64,000 nt of DNA from a virus, in IMG/VR virus record IMGVR_UViG_3300042259_000159. One strand, 5' to 3'. The notes beneath the pieces are model-generated. The model made no database searches. It was not told the origin of the DNA and was given only the letters and a program-made list of their open reading frames with translations. Positions 1 through 64,000 of the stretch are shown here, piece after piece. Numbering within the stretch: position 1 is the first letter of the stretch; every line of letters starts with the position of its first letter. Both the position numbers and the translations under genes were made by a program.

Positions 1-407
1 GTATGGGTGTTAAGTATCAACTCGTTCGCGTGAACAACACCGTTGCGCTTTTTCTGGGCCAATCCGCCGTCGTCCATGTACCAAATGGCGATGTGGATTG
101 CAGACAGCCTGTTCAGGAGTTTCCGGTTGTAGATGTTTTTATAGCCATCTTTGTATAATATCCTTCTCAGTGTTTTACCCCATTTAGTTGTGCTTATATA
201 AGTTCGGTAGCTATCAAATCCGTTATTATTTTTGTAGGTGATGTCAGAGCACTTCACCCCTTCGGAACGTAGATACGCGATTTTCCACAGCAAGTAATCT
301 TTTTGAGCTGCGCAGTGCAGTATCGATCCGCTCCCAGTTTTACCTAAGTGTCCGTCGCCCAAGATGACACTTAGTAATGCAGTTCGTGAACTTCTGTTAA
401 ACTTCAT
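1..407 (-). CDS. LAGLIDADG homing endonuclease (N-terminal part; ORF runs off left edge)
   Basis: Minus-strand ATG at 407..405 preceded by GGAGG. My translation is MKFNRSSRTALLSVILGDGHLGKTG...IHIAIWYMDDGGL, which shows two LAGLIDADG-type motifs. Absent from the ORF track because it is truncated. Confidence 0.7.
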   Translation of the reverse strand, partial: MKFNRSSRTALLSVILGDGHLGKTGSGSILHCAAQKDYLLWKIAYLRSEGVKCSDITYKNNNGFDSYRTYISTTKWGKTLRRILYKDGYKNIYNRKLLNRLSAIHIAIWYMDDGGLAQKKRNGVVHANELILNTH

Positions 408-463
408 GTTAAGCCTCCAAGCACTGTTGTGCTGTTTAAGTCGACATTTAGTCGTTGCACCTT

Positions 464-955
464 CTACCATAAGTAGTTACGGGAGATGTCCTTATAAGAT
501 CTCCGACTACGGATGTCGTCGTAGATATGCTTAGGTATCCCCATAAGGTCTCGAATTTCCTTTGCAGAGTGTCTGCCATCGGCAATCATCTGGCAAATTC
601 TATGCACCTTGTCATCAGGGAGTGTGCTATGTGGACGCTTGCACAACTTGTTCTTGAATGCGTGCTTCCGATTTTCAGATGGCGTCACCCACTCAAGATT
701 GTTCTTGTGGTTATCAATCTTAATCCCATTCTTATGATTGACAACTTTGCCTTCTTCGTAGCCTTGCACATATGTGTAAGCCACAAGTTTATGCACAAAG
801 ATACGAAGAGTCTTTCCTTCAGAGGAGAGGGTTACTCGCTTGTAACCTGTTCTATTAAGGTCAGTGCGCAACACTCTTCCTGTTTCTGAATTTAAGACAA
901 CACCCTCTTCATTAACGAGGTACTTTTCAAAACCTTTTATTGCGACTGGTCTCAC
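464..955 (-). CDS. HNH homing endonuclease
   Basis: Motif NHKNGIKIDNHKNNLEWVTPSENRKHA (HNH_3-like) with a NUMOD4-like N-terminus. GTG start preceded by AAGGAG. Lies inside the putative intron. Confidence 0.8.
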   Translation of the reverse strand: MRPVAIKGFEKYLVNEEGVVLNSETGRVLRTDLNRTGYKRVTLSSEGKTLRIFVHKLVAYTYVQGYEEGKVVNHKNGIKIDNHKNNLEWVTPSENRKHAFKNKLCKRPHSTLPDDKVHRICQMIADGRHSAKEIRDLMGIPKHIYDDIRSRRSYKDISRNYLW

Positions 956-1041
956 ACCTAATCTCCTTATAGTAGCTTGGCTCAGGATTGTCTCTGAGAG
1001 AGTTCCCCTGAATTCACACAGTTTTACGCGGGCATCAATTT

Positions 1042-2010
1042 ACCCGCCCCGAAGTAGAAGGTCTCTCCTAGTCTTCGTCCTCTTGTGGCTTTTGTCAGGC
1101 CAAGCCAAGGCCACGGCCTTCCGTATTCGGGCTTAGTTCTTGCTTTTTCTTTTAAGGTAGAACCCTTGACGATACGGGTGTTCTTTGGGACTACAGTCTT
1201 CCACTTGGTGGCTTGCAGACACTCCGCTACCTTCCCTTCGAGGAGACAGTCATTAACATCCTTACACGGAAGCTCAGCAACATGCCCTCCGGGGAAGATA
1301 CGAACAAACTCTTCTGCTGCTTTCTGACCGGGTTCGTCCATGTCAGGGACGTACACTACCTTCTCAAACAGCTGACGAATCTTGTTTGCATGTTGGAGAA
1401 CAGCCTTCTGCACACTTCCTGCTCCTGAAGGAAGGCTCACAACAGCAGGAATGAGATGTTTGTATTGGGTGTTTGCTACGCTATCCCTGAGCATTTGATA
1501 CAAAGACATTGCATCAATCTCACCTTCGGTGATGTACAGAGTCTTTGCTCCAGCTGTGATAGCTTGTTTCCAACCAAAGAACGAAGCCCCTTTCAAAGAG
1601 CCTATAGCCCACATCCTCTTATCTTTCAGGATTCGTGCTTTATAAGCAGTGAGCTGCCCTCCTTCATCCGTGTAAGGAAAGAATACGATGTCAGGAGTAG
1701 AGCCATCCATAGGTGAGACACCTACTTTGACATTGAAATGCTCAAGGGTTTCTTTCCTCAGCTTTCTTGAAGGAAGAGGATGAGAGAGAAGACTAATTAT
1801 GTGTTTAATTTCTTCGTCTATCTCTTCCTTCGTCTTTTTAGCCACTACAGGAGTGTAGCCTTCAGGTTTGTCCTTATAGGGGTCAGGGACATATTTTCCA
1901 CAAGAGAAACAGTAGCCATCATAGCTGCCATCTTCTTGTAAAAACACTTGTAAACCTGAAGCTGTTCCACAAGAGTGAGGCAATTTTTCTACGCATACTC
2001 CTCGTTTCAT
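1042..2010 (-). CDS. T7 gp4-like DNA primase-helicase, exon 1 (Zn-ribbon plus TOPRIM; helicase domain cut off)
   Basis: Cys cluster HSCG...CFSCGKY, TOPRIM motifs YITEGEIDAMSLYQ and VPDMDEPGQKAA, and the start of a helicase domain (GLTKATRGRRLGETFYFGAG). The track ORF is 1024..2010; the exon end is inferred. Confidence 0.7.
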
Positions 2011-6391: not shown

Positions 6392-7006
6392 TTAGATGCC
6401 GAATACATCCTTCAGTACAGTGAAGAACAGCGTTCGAGTGTCATCCTTCCCACCATATTCAGGATGGGGTTGGAAGCACAGGCTCTTAGTCTTCGGGTAG
6501 ACGACAATTTCAGCTTGGTCGTCACGAAGAACAGAGCGCACCCTTCTTTCAGCCGAGAGAAGAGTGTTGTCGATGCAGTCTTCCACTTCTCCGAATCCTT
6601 CAAGACGACCATGACGGGCAGGAATCATCATCTGGTGGTGAGTGGAGGTGACTTTGTACTTTTCTCCCCTCCAATCGAGAGTGTGTGTGCCTCTGATGGC
6701 ATGACCCGTGACATCCTGCCGCATACTTCCACCATTCATCACATTGAGGAATTGCCCCCCACGGCATATTCCCACCAATGCTGCGTTGTGTTGTGTGGCA
6801 AAGAGGTAGTTGGTTATGTCAGCAATGTCTCGCTGAATACAATTATGGGAAGCCCTGTTGAGTTCACCATACAGAGAAGGGGTGACATCATATCCGCCAG
6901 AGAACACAAAGAGGTCAGCTTCCTCCATCTGTGTTGTCATCTGGTAGCCTGCATTGAGGAACATGGTGGACACAGCAATGTCTTGCGTAGACATAAAGAA
7001 TTTCAT
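6392..7006 (-). CDS. Class I glutamine amidotransferase-like / peptidase C26 (gamma-glutamyl hydrolase type)
   Basis: Nucleophile elbow GICRGGQFLNV and THHQMM motif. Confidence 0.65.
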   Translation of the reverse strand: MKFFMSTQDIAVSTMFLNAGYQMTTQMEEADLFVFSGGYDVTPSLYGELNRASHNCIQRDIADITNYLFATQHNAALVGICRGGQFLNVMNGGSMRQDVTGHAIRGTHTLDWRGEKYKVTSTHHQMMIPARHGRLEGFGEVEDCIDNTLLSAERRVRSVLRDDQAEIVVYPKTKSLCFQPHPEYGGKDDTRTLFFTVLKDVFGI

Positions 7007-7815
7007 CGAAATCTCCTCAGGTTGTCTATTGTGTTGACGACAATTTCATCAGTGCCGGGAATATCTTTGTCGTATTCCAGCATGAGAGTATTGCCATTCC
7101 GTGTCACTCTTTTCCCGCTCTCTTTGAGAGCAGATTCAATAAGGTCTATGACAAGAGGCCGATTGGTGTAACGGTTCAGAGTTTTTTCTACTCCTCTGCC
7201 CCAGTCACCCCCATTAAACGGGTCATCCAAGTGCCTTTTTTCCAACTGCTCCCCGTATATGAAGGCGGACGCAGACCTCACCGTAAGACCAGTATCGAAG
7301 AGGGAATGAGGTCCTCTTCTCGACGCAATATATTTCTCCCCACGATAGAAGTAGGCACTAAGCAACGCCACGGGTGGAGACACTTCAAACTTCTTCATAT
7401 ACTCCACCATCTTTTCTATACGGAAATCCTCATGGACGTCCCACGGAAGACGAGCAAGAGTAGCTGCCGTCAGCAAGATGTTTCTGGGAGCGTCCAGAGA
7501 AATGTACACCCCTCCTTTCTTCTTGTTTGTGTTGTTCTCATAATAGCCCTTGAAGCCGCTTTTCTTGAACAGCCAAGGCCAGTAGTGTTCTTTCAAGAAC
7601 TCACCTTCAGACCTAATACCTCCTGCCGGCCCGGGGACACAGCAGAGGTGAGTATATCCATTTTTGAGGGTGTGCGAATTCTTGAGCCATGCAAGGCACA
7701 CTTCGTTCGGAAAAGATTCACACTCTCTCGTTTTTTCGTTCACGAGAAGGTAGGGTTGAGACCTTACGTTATCATCCTCCTGACATTTCTTCACTTCCTT
7801 AAAGAAACTCCTCAT
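7003..7815 (-). CDS. hypothetical protein (first gene of the amidoligase cluster)
   Basis: 270-aa ORF, ATGA-type overlap with 6392..7006, RBS AAAGGAG upstream. Confidence 0.5.
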   Translation of the reverse strand: MRSFFKEVKKCQEDDNVRSQPYLLVNEKTRECESFPNEVCLAWLKNSHTLKNGYTHLCCVPGPAGGIRSEGEFLKEHYWPWLFKKSGFKGYYENNTNKKKGGVYISLDAPRNILLTAATLARLPWDVHEDFRIEKMVEYMKKFEVSPPVALLSAYFYRGEKYIASRRGPHSLFDTGLTVRSASAFIYGEQLEKRHLDDPFNGGDWGRGVEKTLNRYTNRPLVIDLIESALKESGKRVTRNGNTLMLEYDKDIPGTDEIVVNTIDNLRRFR

Positions 7816-7835
7816 GTTTCTCTCCTTTCTTCTCT

Positions 7836-7882
7836 CTGTATAATATATATATATATATTATATAATAATATATATTATACAG
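7836..7882. repeat. AT-only palindrome (14-bp perfect arms CTGTATAATATATA / TATATATTATACAG)
   Basis: Read directly; sits immediately upstream of the RBS of 7003..7815. Confidence 0.8.
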
Positions 7883-8077: not shown

Positions 8078-8479
8078 CTAGTTCTTGCGACACCAGATTC
8101 CGTCACAAGACGGAGGCTTATTCATCTGGTCAACGTGGAGAGACACACTCTCAATAGGGTATACAATCATGTTATCGTCCCCTTCTTCTTCCACATTGAG
8201 GTAGTAGGACGACTGTTTTTCAAAGTCAAAGTACCTCACTGATGTAACTTTCAGACAAACATGAGCGTTCTCTTTGTAGAAGAAGTCCCCAACATCAAGG
8301 TCGGTGAAAGCCCTCTTCAGGCTAGTATGTCGGCTAACAACTGCAACTCTGGTCATACTCTCTTCTCCTTCGTTTTCTTCCTTACCTTTCAGATAGGGAA
8401 TTTTCAATATTGCAAACACGCTGATACCCATAGCCGCTACCAGAAAGAAAGCTTCACTCCATAACATAGGAGGCTCCAT
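8078..8479 (-). CDS. hypothetical protein (N-terminal TM segment)
   Basis: ORF track. Hydrophobic FFLVAAMGISVFAIL. The start may be the second ATG at 8467 (GGAG upstream). Confidence 0.4.
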   Translation of the reverse strand: MEPPMLWSEAFFLVAAMGISVFAILKIPYLKGKEENEGEESMTRVAVVSRHTSLKRAFTDLDVGDFFYKENAHVCLKVTSVRYFDFEKQSSYYLNVEEEGDDNMIVYPIESVSLHVDQMNKPPSCDGIWCRKN

Positions 8480-55122: not shown

Positions 55123-55206
55123 TGGTAGGAGAAGAGAGATTCGAACTCTCAAGGAATAATCCGTCGAGGCTTAAACTCGATGTGTTTACCATTTCACCAT
55201 TCTCCC
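55123..55206 (-). tRNA. tRNA-Leu (anticodon UAA), type II with long variable arm, CCA encoded
   Basis: GGGAGAA/TTCTCCT acceptor, anticodon arm TCGAG-TTTAAGC-CTCGA, T-arm GAGAG-TTCGAAT-CTCTC. Confidence 0.75.
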
Positions 55207-55245
55207 GTATTTTTTATCTACCATTCCGCCATTCCCGCATTTATT

Positions 55246-55323
55246 TGGTACCCACTGTGAGATTCGAACCCACACTAATCAGTTTCTAAGACTGATGCCT
55301 CTGCCAAGTTGGGCTATACCAGT
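55246..55323 (-). tRNA. chimeric / possibly defective tRNA (anticodon UAG, short variable loop)
   Basis: Good D, anticodon (TCAGT-CTTAGAA-ACTGA) and T arms. However, 5' acceptor ACTGGTA pairs poorly with the local 3' strand AGTGGGT and well with TGCCAGT at 54617..54646. Confidence 0.45.
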
Positions 55324-55581
55324 ATTATGCTTATTATTTTATTTTGAAAGGCCATATGTATACACATATATATATATACATATATATATGTATAGAGCAA
55401 CCAAAATGGTTAAATAAAAAGGTGTTTTGTGGAGACACCAAACTCCTCCAGTTTTAGTGATCTGGAAACAATAAGCGGCGCAGGTGCTCTTTAAAACACG
55501 TGCTACCAAGCGTATAAATTGTCTAGGGGATTTCACCAAACACATTATGTTATTGGAGGGATCTTTCCCTAGACTCAGTAA

Positions 55582-55654
55582 AGCTCCTGACAGGACTTGA
55601 ACCCGCAACCGGCTGATTACAAATCAGCTGCTCTGCCAGTTGAGCTACAGGAGC
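55582..55654 (-). tRNA. tRNA-Thr (anticodon UGU), no encoded CCA
   Basis: GCTCCTG/CAGGAGC acceptor, GCTGA-TTTGTAA-TCAGC. Confidence 0.8.
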
Positions 55655-55658
55655 AGAA

Positions 55659-55730
55659 CAGAGGGAGAAGGATTCGAACCTTCGAATGACGGGACCAAAA
55701 CCCGTTGCCTTACCGCTTGGCTACCCCTCT
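55659..55730 (-). tRNA. tRNA-Gln (anticodon UUG), no encoded CCA
   Basis: ACGGG-TTTTGGT-CCCGT anticodon arm, T-arm GAAGG-TTCGAAT-CCTTC. Confidence 0.75.
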
Positions 55731-55738
55731 AAATTTTT

Positions 55739-55815
55739 TGGCTCCGGCGGCAGGATTTGAACCTACATTCGCAATGGTTAACAGCCATTTGCCTTACCAA
55801 TTCGGCGACACCGGA
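55739..55815 (-). tRNA. tRNA-Asn (anticodon GUU), CCA encoded
   Basis: AATGG-CTGTTAA-CCATT, TTCAAAT T-loop, acceptor TCCGGTG/CGCCGGA. Confidence 0.75.
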
Positions 55816-55860
55816 ATGAACTTTTTATTTGTTATCAGCATTGTTTTGCTTTATTTTAAA

Positions 55861-55939
55861 TGGTCTCGGTGATTAGATTTGAACTAATGATTATTCCTGC
55901 TCCCAAAGCAGGTGCCATACCAAGCTAGGCGACACCGAG
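55861..55939 (-). tRNA. tRNA-Pro (anticodon UGG), CCA encoded
   Basis: CCTGC-TTTGGGA-GCAGG, T-arm ATTAG-TTCAAAT-CTAAT, acceptor CTCGGTG/CACCGAG. The variable region is slightly long. Confidence 0.65.
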
Positions 55940-58022: not shown

Positions 58023-58109
58023 TGGTGCCCAATGCAGGACTCGAACCTGCACGCCATTTCAGGCAGGAGGGCTTAAACCTCGTGTGTCTACCAATTCCAC
58101 CAATCGGGC
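58023..58109 (-). tRNA. tRNA-Leu (anticodon UAA), type II, CCA encoded
   Basis: Close to E. coli leuZ-type layout: GCCCGAT..GTGGAATTGGTAGACAC..TTTAAGC..TGCAGGTTCGAGTCCTGCATTGGGCACCA. Confidence 0.8.
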
Positions 58110-58118
58110 TAAAATCTT

Positions 58119-58202
58119 TGGTGCCTCAGACAGGATTCGAACCTGCACGGATCTCTCCACTTGGTCCTAAGCCAAGCGTGTCTGCCATTCCACCACTGAG
58201 GC
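58119..58202 (-). tRNA. tRNA-Leu (anticodon UAG), type II, CCA encoded
   Basis: GCCTCAG acceptor, CTTGG-CTTAGGA-CCAAG, long variable arm, GCAGGTTCGAATCCTGT. Confidence 0.8.
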
Positions 58203-58646: not shown

Positions 58647-59057
58647 TTAGCCTTCCATCGCCAGCTTGATTGCCCGGCGAACTTTCCCAAAATCGTGAAT
58701 CGAAAACAGGCATCCGCCGAAATTATACCGGCAGACCATCTCCGCATCCAGCCAGCGCAACACCTCCAGCATTTCAGGGGCGGCTGCAATAAGTTTGGCG
58801 TTGGCCTCCATGATTGGCACGCGTCCTTGCACGCCACGGGCAGAGGTTGCACATACCGGGTTGCCGTTGCAATCCTCTACTATCAACCGGCCTTTTCGGT
58901 CCGGCACAACTCCGGCAGTAACCGACCACGGGCCGGGACTATGCACAGGATAATCTTCCCTGTTGTAGGCTGTTTTCCCATCCGTTATAATTGTCGGCGT
59001 TTCGCTATCTTTGCAAACCTTTCCCCGATATGTATTTCCGTCACCGTAGCTATTCAT
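58647..59057 (-). CDS. hypothetical protein
   Basis: Contains EANAKLIAAAPEMLEVL, a motif I recall from many phage and prophage hypothetical proteins. Confidence 0.5.
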   Translation of the reverse strand: MNSYGDGNTYRGKVCKDSETPTIITDGKTAYNREDYPVHSPGPWSVTAGVVPDRKGRLIVEDCNGNPVCATSARGVQGRVPIMEANAKLIAAAPEMLEVLRWLDAEMVCRYNFGGCLFSIHDFGKVRRAIKLAMEG

Positions 59058-59107: not shown

Positions 59108-59281
59108 TATGCGGCCTTATTCGTCATCTCTATACACCTCCACTTGCTCATGTGATTGTCGGAAACTTTCGGCAACTTTTTCGGCGACATCTTTTGTCAT
59201 TAGGCCAGTCCTATACCACTCTCCGGCTTGTTCGTTAATCCATCTCCAGTATTTCACTCGATAATTAACATTTTTTGGCAT
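59108..59281 (-). CDS. hypothetical protein (57 aa)
   Basis: ATG after GGAGGAG; below the track cut-off. Confidence 0.35.
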
Positions 59282-59284
59282 TGT

Positions 59285-59551
59285 CTATCTCCTCCGCAAG
59301 TTGCGCTCTCTGGTCAAGCCACCATTTTTTTCTGACACGTCTTTGTCTCTTTCAATCGTGTAGAGAAGGTTTTCGGATTTGTCTATCAATTCCTGTAATT
59401 GATGATATATTTTCCGGTATTCGTCGTGCGAAATATCCAAAAGTTCCCGCATTCCGTCTCTGGTATTCTTAAACAACAAGCAATCTGCATCACCACGAGA
59501 AAGGCCAAGGTTTGCTTCCATATAATTAAACGGGCAAACAGGCTTTTTCAT
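59285..59551 (-). CDS. hypothetical protein
   Basis: ORF track; ATGA overlap with the upstream gene. Confidence 0.45.
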   Translation of the reverse strand: MKKPVCPFNYMEANLGLSRGDADCLLFKNTRDGMRELLDISHDEYRKIYHQLQELIDKSENLLYTIERDKDVSEKNGGLTRERNLRRR

Positions 59552-59808
59552 GTTGTCTCCTTTATTTCTTCAATAAGTGTTTCCAGGTCTGAACACTCCT
59601 GCTCAAGTGCCTTGTGCAGTGCTTTATTCTCATGAGCACCTTGCATTTCCGAGTACAGCCGCCCGAGCAACGATGCTTCCAAGTATGGCAAAACCCTTTT
59701 CAACAGTTCACCTCGCAACAAATTTTCAGTAACCTGCTTTTCTTGGTGGTTCTTCATCAGGCAAGAACCGCAAATAATATTCTCGCTGTGGTTACAGGAC
59801 GTTATCAT
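59548..59808 (-). CDS. hypothetical protein
   Basis: ORF track; overlap-coupled. Confidence 0.45.
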   Translation of the reverse strand: MITSCNHSENIICGSCLMKNHQEKQVTENLLRGELLKRVLPYLEASLLGRLYSEMQGAHENKALHKALEQECSDLETLIEEIKETT

Positions 59809-60047
59809 ACAAACCCCTCAAAATAGCATAACGGCAGCCAACCCCGAATAAGGTGCGTGTCGTGACCATCTATCAAGAACCTATCTTCACAACATATCCA
59901 ATCATACTCGCCGTCGTCTTTCGCGTCGTTCTCCGGAGCAACATTAGAAAACCACGCACTACAAACTGTTCCGTCATGCAAAAACAACAATATCTGCTGA
60001 CCGTTTGTCGGTAGTGTTTCCGGGCCATTCAATCGTATTTGATTCAT
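59805..60047 (-). CDS. hypothetical protein
   Basis: ORF track; overlap-coupled. Confidence 0.45.
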   Translation of the reverse strand: MNQIRLNGPETLPTNGQQILLFLHDGTVCSAWFSNVAPENDAKDDGEYDWICCEDRFLIDGHDTHLIRGWLPLCYFEGFV

Positions 60048-60257
60048 TTACAGTCCTCCAAATGTATTTTCCATTGCCGTAAACCCGCAGCCTTTTCCAT
60101 CTGCAAGCGTTTCAACTGCGGCATTAAAACCACGGACGAACGCCGGTGGCGGGTCCGGTATGTCGTCATCGTCAGTACCCCAATACTTACGCCAGCTATC
60201 CATCATCGTTTTGTTAATCATTTCACTCATCTTCAAAGCCCTCCACGTGCAAATCAT
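60048..60257 (-). CDS. hypothetical protein
   Basis: ORF track. Confidence 0.4.
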   Translation of the reverse strand: MICTWRALKMSEMINKTMMDSWRKYWGTDDDDIPDPPPAFVRGFNAAVETLADGKGCGFTAMENTFGGL

Positions 60258-60432
60258 TGCTCAGATCCAAGTCAACAAACACCTGCGCCGGTTCCTCTTC
60301 CTCGCCGTAATTACCCGATTGCCTGACGGGGCCGGTGAGTATTCTGATGTCTCTTATCATGCATAACAACTGTGATCCGTCGAAAGAGAGATTAAACAGC
60401 TGAGACAGTTATGCAGGCGTTAACGTTCTTAT

Positions 60433-60461
60433 TATATAGCACAGGAGAAACACTTTGTCAA
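60433..60461 (-). promoter_or_regulatory. sigma70-type promoter (TTGACA-N17-TATATAAT)
   Basis: Minus strand reads gcTTGACAaagtgtttctcctgtgcTATATAATaag. Confidence 0.55.
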
Positions 60462-60611
60462 GCTTTTTATAAAACTATTTTAAAAAAGAACTGTTTCGCT
60501 GTACATAATTCTGACTTAAGGCCTAGAACAAATAGTAAAACCGGAGGAGGAGCTTCTTTTCATCTAGGATGTGACTTCCATGTCTGATAGGCTTTCCGGC
60601 GTGTTAAGAAG

Positions 60612-60640
60612 AATATAACAAACAACACAGGCCTTGTCAA
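60612..60640 (-). promoter_or_regulatory. sigma70-type promoter (TTGACA-N17-TATATT)
   Basis: Minus strand reads cTTGACAaggcctgtgttgtttgtTATATTc. Confidence 0.5.
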
Positions 60641-60713
60641 GTGTTTTCTTACATCCCTTATGAGACTCCTTATTGTTTATATCACAACACCCTGCTGTCA
60701 TTGCTTCTTCCTC

Positions 60714-61423
60714 TTAGATAGTAAACAGTTTTTCAACACCTTTCTTGCTTCCCGTGTTCTTTGTCAGGCTGCTTACAATTTCTTTTTTCCAAATGCAAGT
60801 AAAATCTTCTGGAGCATTATATTCTGAAACAAACACCTTATGTCCCTCATTAGCCTTATCTCTGCACCACTGCCAAAACAACTCATGGTCAAAATCATTA
60901 GAGTACTTTGTTGTCCCTGAATAGGGCGGATCACAGTAGATTAAGCTGTTACTGGGGATATGTAGCTCATCATAAGGACAACACAAAAATTCTACATTTT
61001 GAATTAGCGAGGACTGTTTTATTGCTGATTGCTTACTACGTTTTGTTTGTATTATCATGTTTTCAATATCACCTTTTGTTCCTGCTTTGTCCCGCCTATA
61101 CCCCCCAAAAAATTTACCACCAAAAGACATTGAAAATGCTGTAAATCCAGTTAAACCATCAATATTTTTGTGTTTTTTCATTGAATTGTACATATCTTCT
61201 GTAATAATTTCAGGAATACTTTTTGGTGCATCGCGTATAAGTTTTAATGCTTCTATTACATACGGGCTGCAATGGCGGCCCCAATACGATTCCCATCAAC
61301 CTTATCAATCATGTTTCCACCTCCAACAAACGGTTCAACCCACCACTGGTCAGGTTTTCTTTCTGCAAGCATAATTGGGAGGATATACTTTGCTATTCTG
61401 TTTTTACTTCCCATGTATTTCAT
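60714..61423 (-). pseudogene. Dam-like (D12 class) N6-adenine methyltransferase split by a frameshift
   Basis: N-part MKYMGSKNRIAKYILP...WVEPFVGGGN (61256..61423). C-part ...SPYVIEALKLIRD...LIYCDPPYSGTTKY (60714..approx 61250) lies in another frame. The switch is near 61250-61265. Confidence 0.65.
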
Positions 61424-61772
61424 ACTTACCTCCTGTTTTTGTTTTAGTTGTAAGGTGCTTTTACCTGTCAATATCAAACTACCCCTATTCCCCCTGTTTG
61501 TCAATACCTTATTCTTATCTAAACATAAGATATATATATTATATATATATTCTTTATATAATATAAATATATATACTTTATATATAGTATATTTATATAA
61601 TATATATATGTATATAATATATATACTCCTACTCACTACGAGACACATACATAATATATACATTAACCCTTCCTGCAAAGGAAGCCGTAGGATACCATAA
61701 AAAAGAGATTTTGTCAAGCATTATTTTAAGAAATGTTAAAAATAATTTCCTAACCTAATCTCTATTTTTTAC

Positions 61773-61801
61773 TTGACAAAAAGACTTTATTGTGTTATAA
61801 C
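61773..61801 (+). promoter_or_regulatory. sigma70-type promoter (TTGACA-N17-TATAAC)
   Basis: Read directly. Confidence 0.5.
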
Positions 61802-61833
61802 ATAATAGAGGCTAATTTTATATGGAGGAAAAT

Positions 61834-62016
61834 ATGATATACACATACAGGTGTTCAATCTGCAACAAGCTTTTTACCTCGCACGAGGATGTATACGATG
61901 TATACTTAGAAAGCTTTGTTTGTCCTGAATGTCTGCGTGAGGGAAATATCTCCGCTGTCTATGGCGAGGATTTCTTAGATTCGCTGGACATGTTCGACAA
62001 CCCAGAAGATCTTTAA
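61834..62016 (+). CDS. Zn-ribbon protein
   Basis: ATG after GGAGGA; CSIC...CPEC. Confidence 0.45.
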   Translation: MIYTYRCSICNKLFTSHEDVYDVYLESFVCPECLREGNISAVYGEDFLDSLDMFDNPEDL

Positions 62017-62051
62017 TAAAGTATTTTATCAAAAAATAATTAAATAAAGAC

Positions 62052-62080
62052 TTGACAAATGGTTAAAAGTGTGTTATAAT
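62052..62080 (+). promoter_or_regulatory. consensus sigma70 promoter (TTGACA-N17-TATAAT)
   Basis: Read directly; followed at 62103-62125 by the AT-rich Fur-like site AAATGATAATGAATTTCATTGTC. Confidence 0.6.
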
Positions 62081-62219
62081 AGGTTTTGAATTAATAATTA
62101 AAAATGATAATGAATTTCATTGTCTTTTGTAATCTTCTAAGATGTCTTAGATAGGCATCCGAAAAGTATAGGGGAGTTTCCCTCCTTTTCTCCCCTATAA
62201 AATATTAACAGGAGGTAAT

Positions 62220-62540
62220 ATGGCTAGGCCGAAAGGTACAACAAAAGAGGTTCTTATGAACAGGAAGCTTCTTGCACAACTAGACATTATCAAAGAGAAG
62301 GTGTCTGATGATGTTGTAGAGGCTTATGAAACACTGGCCTTCTTGATGAGGGATAAGGCATCCTCTTCAAGTGTAAGAAAGGGTTCAGCGGAACAAATCA
62401 TTGGTCTCCACAAATCTTTTTGCAAGGAAGCAAGCGGTGATGTTGAGGATGTAGAGGAGGTAATGGAAGACGGTAGGACTTCTGGCGGGGGTATGGGTAA
62501 AATACTCAGCCTGAAAATGGTAGGAGGAGGCAATGACTAA
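62220..62540 (+). CDS. putative terminase small subunit
   Basis: Inferred only from its position directly upstream of terL and overlapping it (ATGACTAA). Confidence 0.35.
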   Translation: MARPKGTTKEVLMNRKLLAQLDIIKEKVSDDVVEAYETLAFLMRDKASSSSVRKGSAEQIIGLHKSFCKEASGDVEDVEEVMEDGRTSGGGMGKILSLKMVGGGND

Positions 62541-62604
62541 ACTCGCACCTGCATCAAGAAAGCAAGAAATGATGCTGGGTGCTGATGCCCAAATGACGGT
62601 AATT
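62533..62604 (+). CDS. terL: terminase large subunit, exon 1
   Basis: MTKLAPASRKQEMMLGADAQMTVI. A stop follows 2 codons later unless the transcript is spliced. Confidence 0.55.
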
Positions 62605-63082
62605 GGTAGATAACTGCCCTGTACACAGGAAACTGTGTATGTGTATCTCATTAAAACGGGGAACCCTAAGTGTACACGCATAAGGGAATCCCGTGACTAC
62701 GCAAGCCGAAAAAGGAGTAGGCATGAAAAATTTAGGATTTATGGGTTTTGATAAGTGTGCGGATATGTTCTGACCTAGAGAAGGGTTTTTCATGCTCTTC
62801 TACTGTAAGGAGGAATAAGGTTGGAACAAGCACGGTACATAGGATCTATAGAAGAAAAACGCATACTTCCATATCTAAGAATTTTTCTTGGGAGTAGTTG
62901 TAACGACTAGTTCATAAGAACGTAAGACACAAGTAGTCCTTAAGTGCAAGGACAAGGTGTTTGAAACATGAGACACTCTAACAAGTAATGTTGAGGGTGA
63001 AGAGATAGTCTGAACTGTATAGAAATATACAGCAGGAGAACATTTTAATGTTTTTCCGGCAGATGCCTTACGAACATCTGTG
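62605..63082 (+). ncRNA. group I intron 1 in terL (ORF-less, approx 478 nt)
   Basis: Core GTAACGACTAGTTC...GAAGAGATAGTCTGA, hairpin CTGTATAgaaaTATACAG, terminal CAGATG..CATCTG hairpin, ends in G. Confidence 0.6.
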
Positions 63083-63368
63083 AACATTTTGGGTGCCGCA
63101 GGTTCGGGAAAGTCATACATAATGAATATGATACCTTTGAGGTATGTCGATTGCCCCAACTTTAGGGGGATTGTCTTCCGAAGGGAAACGACACAGCTTA
63201 CAGGTGAAGGGGGGATGTGGGATACAGCAACGGAGATATACTCTGAGCTGCCTAAAAATATCAGGCCCAAAATATTGAAACATAACCTGAGAATGATTTT
63301 TCCGAATGGGGCAAAAATTAAGTTTTCACACATGGAAAATGATAATGATTTCAGGAAACATCAAGGGT
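63083..63368 (+). CDS. terL: terminase large subunit, exon 2 (Walker A)
   Basis: NILGAAGSGKSYIMN...GIVFRRETTQL...KFSHMENDNDFRKHQG. Confidence 0.7.
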
Positions 63369-63622
63369 TAATTAGTAGCCCCTTGTGTTGGTGACAGCGC
63401 AAGCAAACTAACCTAATTCGGTGGAAGCCCAAACATGTAGGATGTGGGTGATACCGAGCAAGCCACGGCGTGTGTAACGACTAGTTCTTAGGAACGTAGG
63501 CCCAAGCGGGTCGAAACGGTTAGCATCTTATTAAGATGAAGATATAGTCTACTCTGCATGGAAACATGCAGCGGACACTTTATGTGTCGGGCAGATGTTA
63601 GCGCCATCTGTTGAATATTATG
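63369..63622 (+). ncRNA. group I intron 2 in terL (ORF-less, approx 254 nt)
   Basis: GTAACGACTAGTTC...GAAGATATAGTCTAC (compare canonical AGATATAGTC), CTGCATGgaaaCATGCAG, CAGATG..CATCTG. U before the 5' junction and G before the 3' junction. Confidence 0.65.
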
Positions 63623-63739
63623 TACAATATACCCTGATATGCTTTGATGAGGCAACACATTTCACTTTCCAACAAGTTGAATACTTAATGTCACGTATGA
63701 GAAGTAAAAGTAAGTATGCTTCTCGTATGGTTCTGTCGT
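63623..63739 (+). CDS. terL: terminase large subunit, exon 3 (Walker B)
   Basis: (L)QYTLICFDEATHFTFQQVEYLMSRMRSKSKYASRMVLS; the 3' end is approximate. Confidence 0.65.
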
Positions 63740-64000
63740 GGATTACGCGACATGTATGGCGAAAGCTGTACTGGCAACTGTGTGAACTCAGGGAAACCTT
63801 AGCTGCTGCAATTGGGCAGAGGAAGAAGGCAATCCTGAGCGAAGCCTTCCCACCGGGAAGGAACGTGCAACGACCATCGAAAGCGTAACACCTGTTACAG
63901 TGAGTAGAGTACACCACACATGTGTGGTGGAAGCGCACAGCCCCTAACATGTAACGATGAGGGTGAAGATATGGTCTGAACCTACAGAAATGTAGAAAAA
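63740..64000 (+). ncRNA. group I intron 3 in terL (runs off right edge)
   Basis: CAACGACCATCG...GAAGATATGGTCTGA, with GACCA/TGGTC replacing the GACTA/TAGTC of introns 1 and 2. Hairpin CCTACAgaaaTGTAG(G). Confidence 0.55.

Follow-up and report, generated by a model that had tools for sequence, protein, structure and literature searches.

How is a complete packaging enzyme encoded at the end of a 64,000-nucleotide (nt) stretch of viral DNA (IMG/VR record IMGVR_UViG_3300042259_000159; hereafter the window, meaning the whole stretch analyzed), where recognizable segments of a large terminase subunit (TerL) follow one another but are separated by stop codons? The original prediction, made from the letters of the window, read positions 62533-64000 as a TerL gene split by at least three group I introns that lack open reading frames (ORFs). 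We find four such introns, none with an intact endonuclease ORF, and place the probability that this TerL gene consists of five exons and four group I introns, of the IA type usual in phages, at about 0.93. The large-terminase gene of a large tailed phage is cut by the end of the window, and the assemblies point to a genome no smaller than about 129 kb. The nearest cultured relatives of this TerL are found in the Vequintavirinae at ≈50% identity, and a megablast search of the region against cultured phages returned no close relative.

The frame that opens at the ATG at 62533 encodes MTKLAPASRKQEMMLGADAQMTVIG and then meets a stop, and the ORF list contains two further pieces in other frames, GAAGSGKSY...FRKHQG and QYTLICFDEATHF...SRMVLS. 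All three pieces proposed to carry the TerL signature are present in frame and colinear with TerL profiles: joined, they match PHROG 9526 with E=1.7e-61 (profile positions 7-162 aligned with residues 3-158 of the query) and Pfam Terminase_6N with E=6e-17. A tblastn search with the joined TerL retrieved 1,037 cultured-phage records at ≥80% query coverage; among the matches listed, all align as a single uninterrupted piece with 98-99% coverage and ≈53% identity, for example Vequintavirinae phage Ro1. Additional contigs were found through a 106-residue protein encoded just upstream (62220-62540), which occurs on several public contigs and whose stop codon overlaps the ATG of TerL exon 1. One of these contigs, L002 (JGI Ga0451648_000250), is 100% identical to window positions 59138-64000 (4,863 nt) and runs 8.5 kb further, and on it the TerL of Ro1 is recovered by tblastn as five colinear pieces that cover Ro1 residues 3-482. 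We also considered the window as a circular permutation of a 70-kb JGI contig and discarded this idea, the overlap being merely 4,863 nt.

Splice junctions were placed where a U precedes the 5′ site within a P1 U·G wobble, the intron ends in G, the frame remains open, and the product agrees with homologues. Exon 1 (62533..62607, + strand) is a 25-codon segment supported by the ORF list and by a tblastn match to Ro1 TerL residues 3-26, and ends in the invariant G25. It is followed by intron T1 (62608-63091, +; 484 nt), which separates the Gly-Gly codon pair of Walker A (VIG|GAAGSGKS), forms a P1 of GGU·AG/CUGCC with its U·G wobble at U62607, and has G63091 as its last base; this junction pair is the sole U/G combination that restores the invariant GGAAGSGKS. 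Here the original coordinates, 62605-63082, require correction: the 5′ junction moves by 3 nt and the 3′ junction by 9 nt. The corresponding joint (62604|63083) would add the residues NI, replace the first Gly of the invariant GG with Leu, and leave P1 with no U·G wobble; the NIL residues it yields are intron sequence, such that exon 1 ends with VIG and exon 2 begins with GAAGSGKS.

Exon 2 (63092..63368, +), defined by tblastn, spliced translation, and alignment, extends from Walker A to FRKHQG and the first base of the Leu118 codon. Intron T2 (63369-63622, +; 254 nt, no ORF) sits inside this codon in the invariant QGL just upstream of Walker B, with P1 wobble U63368·G63378 and last base G63622; this joint, 63368 to 63623, is exactly the one initially proposed. 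The same site is also occupied in L011, a relative with 67% TerL identity. Exon 3 (63623..63739, +; 117 nt), identified by tblastn and spliced translation, encodes QYTLICFDE...SRMVLS with Walker B and closes with the first base of the Cys157 codon, within SCNPDPD. Intron T3 (+; 284 nt, 261 nt of these in the window) begins at 63740 and, as anticipated, runs off the window edge, ending 23 nt past it (L002 4603-4886); its junctions are based on U63739·G63747, the terminal G at L002 G4886, P10, and homologue length. An alternative pair for T3, U63734 with L002 G4878, which would give RMVLIIGNPDPD, was rejected on three counts: U63734 sits in a Watson-Crick pair instead of a wobble, no P10 forms, and the resulting protein exceeds every homologue in length by one residue. 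The tblastn overlap of IIG at that junction is a chance extension. Intron T4 follows beyond the window (L002 5195-5476; 282 nt) at the site LLRG|NWY (GNW), with L002 U5194·G5203 in P1 and G5476 as last base. The rule that a U precedes the 5′ junction and a G ends the intron thus holds at all four introns.

Removal of the four introns yields an open frame of 499 codons, the length of TerL from Raoultella phage Ro1. The spliced protein matches Terminase_6N with E=1.7e-30 in one stretch (profile positions 2-215 of 215) and Terminase_6C with E=4.2e-10, and contains the Walker motifs GAAGSGKS and LICFDE of the T4-like family that joins an N-terminal ATPase to a C-terminal RNase H-like nuclease in one polypeptide. 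We aligned it with eleven uninterrupted homologues of 48-65% identity (12 sequences in all). The alignment is free of gaps at the joints, VIG|GAAGSGKS, HQG-L|QYT, MVLS-C|NPDPD, and LLRG|NWY, and no homologue in it has residues that align to intron sequence. Residues that do not vary at these joints are G25, G26, Q116, G117, L118, N158, P159, D160, G259, N260, and W261; conservation of S156 and C157 is at least 90%.

These findings bear on the proposal of a pseudogene that is decaying along with a phage lineage either defective or dying out, with the interruptions left as unremoved relics and no functional TerL made. In its favor are the position of T1 under the Rfam threshold with a large insert and the fact that no transcript evidence was found. 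However, the spliced coding sequence is open in two strains ≈2.5% apart, which differ at 32 synonymous and 8 nonsynonymous codons, a ratio that indicates purifying selection on the spliced frame; every invariant TerL residue is retained; the core helices are all intact and show compensatory changes; and the phage recurs across many samples with complete head genes downstream. We regard a pseudogene as very improbable.

The segments removed by this splicing scheme were compared with the Rfam model RF00028 (Intron_gpI), for which the gathering score is 50 bits. T2 matches at 63359-63571 with 76.1 bits (E=1.6e-17), T3 at 63728-63997 with 77.5 bits (E=5.9e-18), and T4 in L002 with 95.9 bits; there is no further match in window positions 1-62500 at E below 0.01. 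P2, P3, P4, P6, P7, P7.1, P7.2, P8, and P9 occur in canonical order with complementary strands in T1-T4 and in five related introns. P9.2, located where present, corresponds to the terminal CAGATG/CATCTG hairpin that the original prediction attributed to all three introns; it is found in introns 1 and 2 and is not found in intron 3. Helices were checked by hand and with a script that was given explicit strands, in place of a MAFFT alignment of eight introns that misaligned the 5′ half of one. An automatic longest-helix search for P3 returned spurious helices and was replaced by the explicit strands.

The P3 sequence is different in all nine introns compared, with pairing kept in each. The P7 strands read GACUA/UAGUC in T1 and T2, as against GACCA/UGGUC in T3 and T4; this double compensatory change from U-A to C-G bears out the pairs claimed earlier for introns 1 to 3. 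A P10 of 3-4 base pairs (bp), read from the sequence, can be drawn at every 3′ site and is GUAA/UUAC in T3. The presence of P7.1 and P7.2 (GUUC/GAAC and GGCCC/GGGUC in T2; GUAACA/UGUUAC and CACCACACA/UGUGUGGUG in T3) assigns these introns to subgroup IA as a whole, the usual phage type. Motifs of the type GAKATRGTCT are found four times in the window against 0.45 expected, three of them inside TerL introns. The shared core motif is carried by introns 1-3 as claimed, with the exception of its exact form in intron 3, which is GCAACGACCA and not GTAACGAC.

By the established mechanism, folding of the pre-mRNA would bring the end of the exon into P1 pairing with the internal guide sequence, with the U·G wobble marking the cleavage site; free guanosine bound in P7 would attack the 5′ splice site, P10 and the terminal G would align the 3′ exon, and the exons would be ligated in a guanosine-initiated, two-step transesterification. 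All four splicing events would be required before the 499-residue ATPase-nuclease could be made.

Could the interruptions be something other than introns? Inteins, free-standing endonuclease genes, small transposons, or assembly chimeras might also separate conserved blocks, with the pieces expressed separately or by recoding. Gene callers do list the pieces as separate ORFs, and six TerL homologues of 790-870 residues (P0008, P0014, P0042, P0082, P0091, and P0096) carry a ≈360-residue LAGLIDADG_3 intein in Walker A, between residues 32 and 33 (GSGK|S). In the present gene, however, stop codons interrupt the exon frame throughout the inserts, which have no long ORF and no protein-domain matches; two of the joints fall inside codons; exons 2-5 have no start signals of their own at the homology boundaries; the covariance-model E-values range from 1e-17 to 1e-24; and the true inteins of the relatives sit elsewhere, at 32|33. 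Assemblies made independently (JGI, Logan, ENA, and IMG/VR) show the same architecture at identities of 97-100%, which rules out chimeras. The covariance model and the junction analysis together refute this reading, and the chance that any such insertion explains the locus is negligible.

Several observations do weigh against a gene of five exons joined by group I splicing. In the window, T1 reaches just 39.2 bits (E=4e-8 in a local search, over its 3′ half, 62875-63032), below the 50-bit threshold. The low score is attributable to a 193-nt insert at 62701-62893, as the 301-nt allele of a 98%-identical strain that is free of it (L006, an ENA assembly) scores 59.7 bits; with this natural deletion variant, all three segments initially proposed match the covariance model. 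The P1 of T1 includes just three exon base pairs, and together with the insert this may cause the intron to splice poorly or to need help. The frame of exon 3 remains open for 49 codons into T3, through P2-P6 (63595-63888, +), and ribosomes reading into T3 could compete with folding of the ribozyme; the earlier statement that each piece stops a few codons past its conserved residues therefore fails for exon 3, while stops lie within two codons of the splice site in T1 and T4 and about ten codons into T2. Exon 1 (75 nt) and exon 3 (117 nt) are short enough that exon skipping could occur. A 91-residue junction peptide spanning the exon joints had two matches among database proteins, neither of them across a joint of this phage.

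Related to these points is the possibility that the introns are real group I introns of which at least one, T1 above all, splices only with help, from a protein of the phage or its host or from ribosomes translating the upstream exon, so that TerL output would be limited or regulated by splicing. The weak P1 and the P6 insert of T1 are in line with this, and introns of the same genome encode LAGLIDADG proteins, which when intron-encoded can serve as maturases in organelles. In addition, several predicted introns of Bastillevirinae are spliced in vivo and not in vitro (PMC11878797), which also counts among the points against the proposed gene structure and makes self-splicing of the TerL introns a prediction from the established group I mechanism. 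On the other hand, the cores of T2, T3, and T4 are complete and score 76-96 bits, the strains conserve an intact T1 core around the insert, and the sequence demands no cofactor. We consider a cofactor requirement unlikely.

We return to the preferred reading, four group I introns in one gene, to ask where the T1 insert and the missing endonuclease genes come from. The P6-loop insert (62701..62893, +) varies between strains as nested deletion alleles: T1 measures 484, 376, and 301 nt in L002, L009, and L006, respectively, with the ribozyme core kept in each. An AGGAG Shine-Dalgarno sequence in the insert precedes an ATG at 62723 that opens a 16-codon ORF stub, such that the peripheral ORF is already lost even in the longest allele. 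The stub is probably what remains of a decayed homing endonuclease gene; Pfam finds just a faint HTH_23 match in the insert (E=0.1), so that this origin stays at the level of inference. According to the ORF list and Pfam, no homing endonuclease ORF of ≥60 residues is present in T1-T4.

Endonuclease genes are found in introns nearby. The portal gene (Portal_Mu) that adjoins TerL has two introns in L002, with Rfam scores of 51.5 and 93 bits: the first (6918-7858; 941 nt) contains a 200-residue LAGLIDADG_2 gene, and the second (8085-8433) is ORF-less in this contig. Splicing gives a portal protein of 490 residues with an end-to-end Pfam profile match and brings the number of introns within the 5-kb TerL-portal block to six. 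The 5′ part of a seventh group I intron occupies positions 1..1048 (−) of the window, where it is cut by the edge, in a primase/helicase-like gene (ORF 2010..1024, with a Toprim domain) at FYFGAG|VKMGKS, an apparent helicase Walker A motif. This intron, read from its sequence, encodes an HNH protein (955..464) and a LAGLIDADG protein that starts at 407 and runs off the window edge. The complete intron in L016 (1-1400) shows P3′, P8, GAUAUAGUC, P9, and the terminal G. Rfam missed it in the window, since its core is interrupted by the ORFs and its 3′ part falls beyond the edge; introns in addition to these seven are for this reason likely elsewhere in the genome. Proteins of the LAGLIDADG_2 (E=1.8e-26) and HNH_3 (E=1.4e-11) families are encoded by the portal and primase-helicase introns, and the endonucleases of the seventh intron are paralogous to those of the portal introns. 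A motif scan of the window for further split introns found the left-edge one only; a match at 58733 and other single-motif matches are isolated and were taken as chance.

Eight tRNA genes form an array ahead of the packaging module, at 55126-55939 and 58026-58202 (−), and L009, L012, and L013 have similar arrays in the same place. A Dam-like (D12 class) DNA methyltransferase is encoded at 60714-61717 (−) in two adjacent ORFs ≈60 nt apart, the N-terminal one with FVGGG (start near 61440) and the other with DPPY (61193..60714); the gap is too short for an intron and may reflect a frameshift or a split gene. Within this region, 39 nt (61389-61427) share 95% identity with the Cellulophaga phage phi12:1 methylase.

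Comparison of strains shows how labile the introns are. L009 and L010, which are 97% identical to the strain of the window, lack the 941-nt LAGLIDADG portal intron exactly at the predicted junction, with four synonymous differences clustered around the empty site, whereas their second portal intron, ORF-less in the strain of the window, holds a 227-residue HNH ORF. In the more distant L011, introns occupy the T1 position in shifted form, the T2 position, and portal site 1, and none is present at T3, T4, or portal site 2. L012 and L013 (60-65% TerL identity) have no introns. The Walker A intron of L011 (1498-1778) is inserted one Gly codon (3 nt) downstream, VIGG|AAG versus VIG|GAAG, which may mean that the intron slid, or was inserted anew, at the GGY GGU repeat. 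The inteins of the TerL homologues described above are seven codons from the T1 site, which marks Walker A as a hot spot that attracts selfish insertions of both kinds.

Sequence exchange may have taken place around introns that lack ORFs. A 430-bp tract (L002 4147-4576; window 63284-63713) that is identical between L002 and L009 is centered on T2. It is the longest identical run in the ≈3 kb compared, which begin with exon 2 and reach as far as the first portal intron site, in strains ≈2.5% apart, that is, with a difference about every 40 bp. T2 itself has no mismatch over 254 nt, and the tract reaches 85-91 bp into each flanking exon, where the surrounding exon sequence differs by 2.5-3.2%. 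This looks like the co-conversion that accompanies homing, and as a single case it could also represent ordinary recombination. T3 and T4 share 52 nt, from P4′ through P7, at 100% identity (window 63827-63878; L002 5280-5331), a stretch that is 92-96% identical in the first portal intron, whereas the full-length introns are ≈68% identical (193 of 284 positions in a global alignment). In L009, a few positions distinguish the T3 and T4 copies of the 52-nt stretch. These similarities suggest that T3 and T4 are paralogous introns with some gene conversion between them.

Taken as a whole, the TerL introns appear from these comparisons to be mobile phage introns of the IA type, mobile now or recently. 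They are selfish elements inserted in the most conserved codons of the gene, those of Walker A, QGL beside Walker B, SCNPDPD, and GNW, and the strains show their gain, loss, and decay in progress. Whether the ORF-less TerL introns still move, or are kept as a block with the portal introns, through endonucleases supplied in trans by neighboring introns or co-infecting strains is more speculative, and we consider it doubtful. Compatible with this proposal are the 430-bp tract around T2, the presence of one endonuclease-bearing portal intron per strain in a reciprocal pattern, and the 52-nt identity of T3 and T4. A stronger form, contained within that same small probability, would have introns at the four most conserved TerL sites shield the gene from rival homing endonucleases and inteins, or tie packaging to the supply of GTP.

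One natural population of this phage represents several stages in the life cycle of an intron, among them the empty site, the endonuclease-bearing intron, the decaying ORF, and the minimal ORF-less ribozyme, which makes the lineage a convenient system in which to follow how introns persist and spread when they have no endonuclease. There is also a practical consequence. Gene callers report TerL here as four or five unrelated small ORFs, such that terminase-based detection, phylogeny, and completeness estimates mishandle the lineage unless the introns are removed.

Among the known parallels are the td, nrdB, and sunY introns of bacteriophage T4, which belong to subgroup IA2. They share with the TerL introns P7.1/P7.2, the GAUAUAGUC element of J8/7-P7, and GNRA-capped P2 and P9, and their ORFs, if present, likewise reside in peripheral loops; the 3′ core of T2 is ≈82% identical to the td introns of T4-like Salmonella phages, and a TerL intron core is 73% identical to the split TerL of phage DSS3_VP1. 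The phage T4 introns occur one per gene in genes of nucleotide metabolism, in contrast to four in one packaging gene here. The tail tube gene orf142 of phage Twort has three group I introns (Landthaler and Shub 1999, as described in PMC11878797) and, like the present TerL gene, collects several short, ORF-less introns of the IA type in one late gene of a large, myovirus-like phage; the core of the fourth TerL intron is ≈72% identical to an orf142 intron over 70% of its length. The short internal exons in both make exon skipping possible, which has been reported for Twort orf142 and for TerL of phage SIOphi (PMC11878797). The differences are that the gene here encodes TerL and not a tail tube, contains four introns and not three, and belongs to an unrelated lineage known from metagenomes and read from sequence alone.

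TerL genes interrupted by two or three group I introns are known from Bastillevirinae, where splicing was shown experimentally (PMC11878797). Introns in those phages, as here, occupy core genes of DNA metabolism and packaging and are a mixture of HNH- or LAGLIDADG-bearing and ORF-less forms, but average 802 nt and mostly contain ORFs, whereas three of the four TerL introns described here are ORF-less and 254-284 nt in length; moreover, the present TerL, which, unlike its counterparts there, is a sequence-based case, has four introns with two more in the adjoining portal gene. Jug phages average 18.5 short introns per genome with terL in two to three fragments (PMC12880540), and in crAss-like Zeta phages, with up to 14 introns per genome, a major capsid protein gene is broken into five fragments (PMC7886860). 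The likeness extends to a metagenomic origin, to many short group I introns in essential genes, and to inteins in related genes. In contrast, those are other phage groups with other genome sizes, TerL is in five fragments here, and within the 64-kb window the introns are concentrated in the TerL-portal block and one primase-helicase gene rather than spread genome-wide. The present finding leaves what is known of group I introns unchanged, and the description of multiple ORF-less introns as uncommon for a phage holds in a restricted sense: TerL genes with two or three introns were already published, and together with the five-fragment capsid gene they place four introns in TerL at the upper end of the known range and not outside it.

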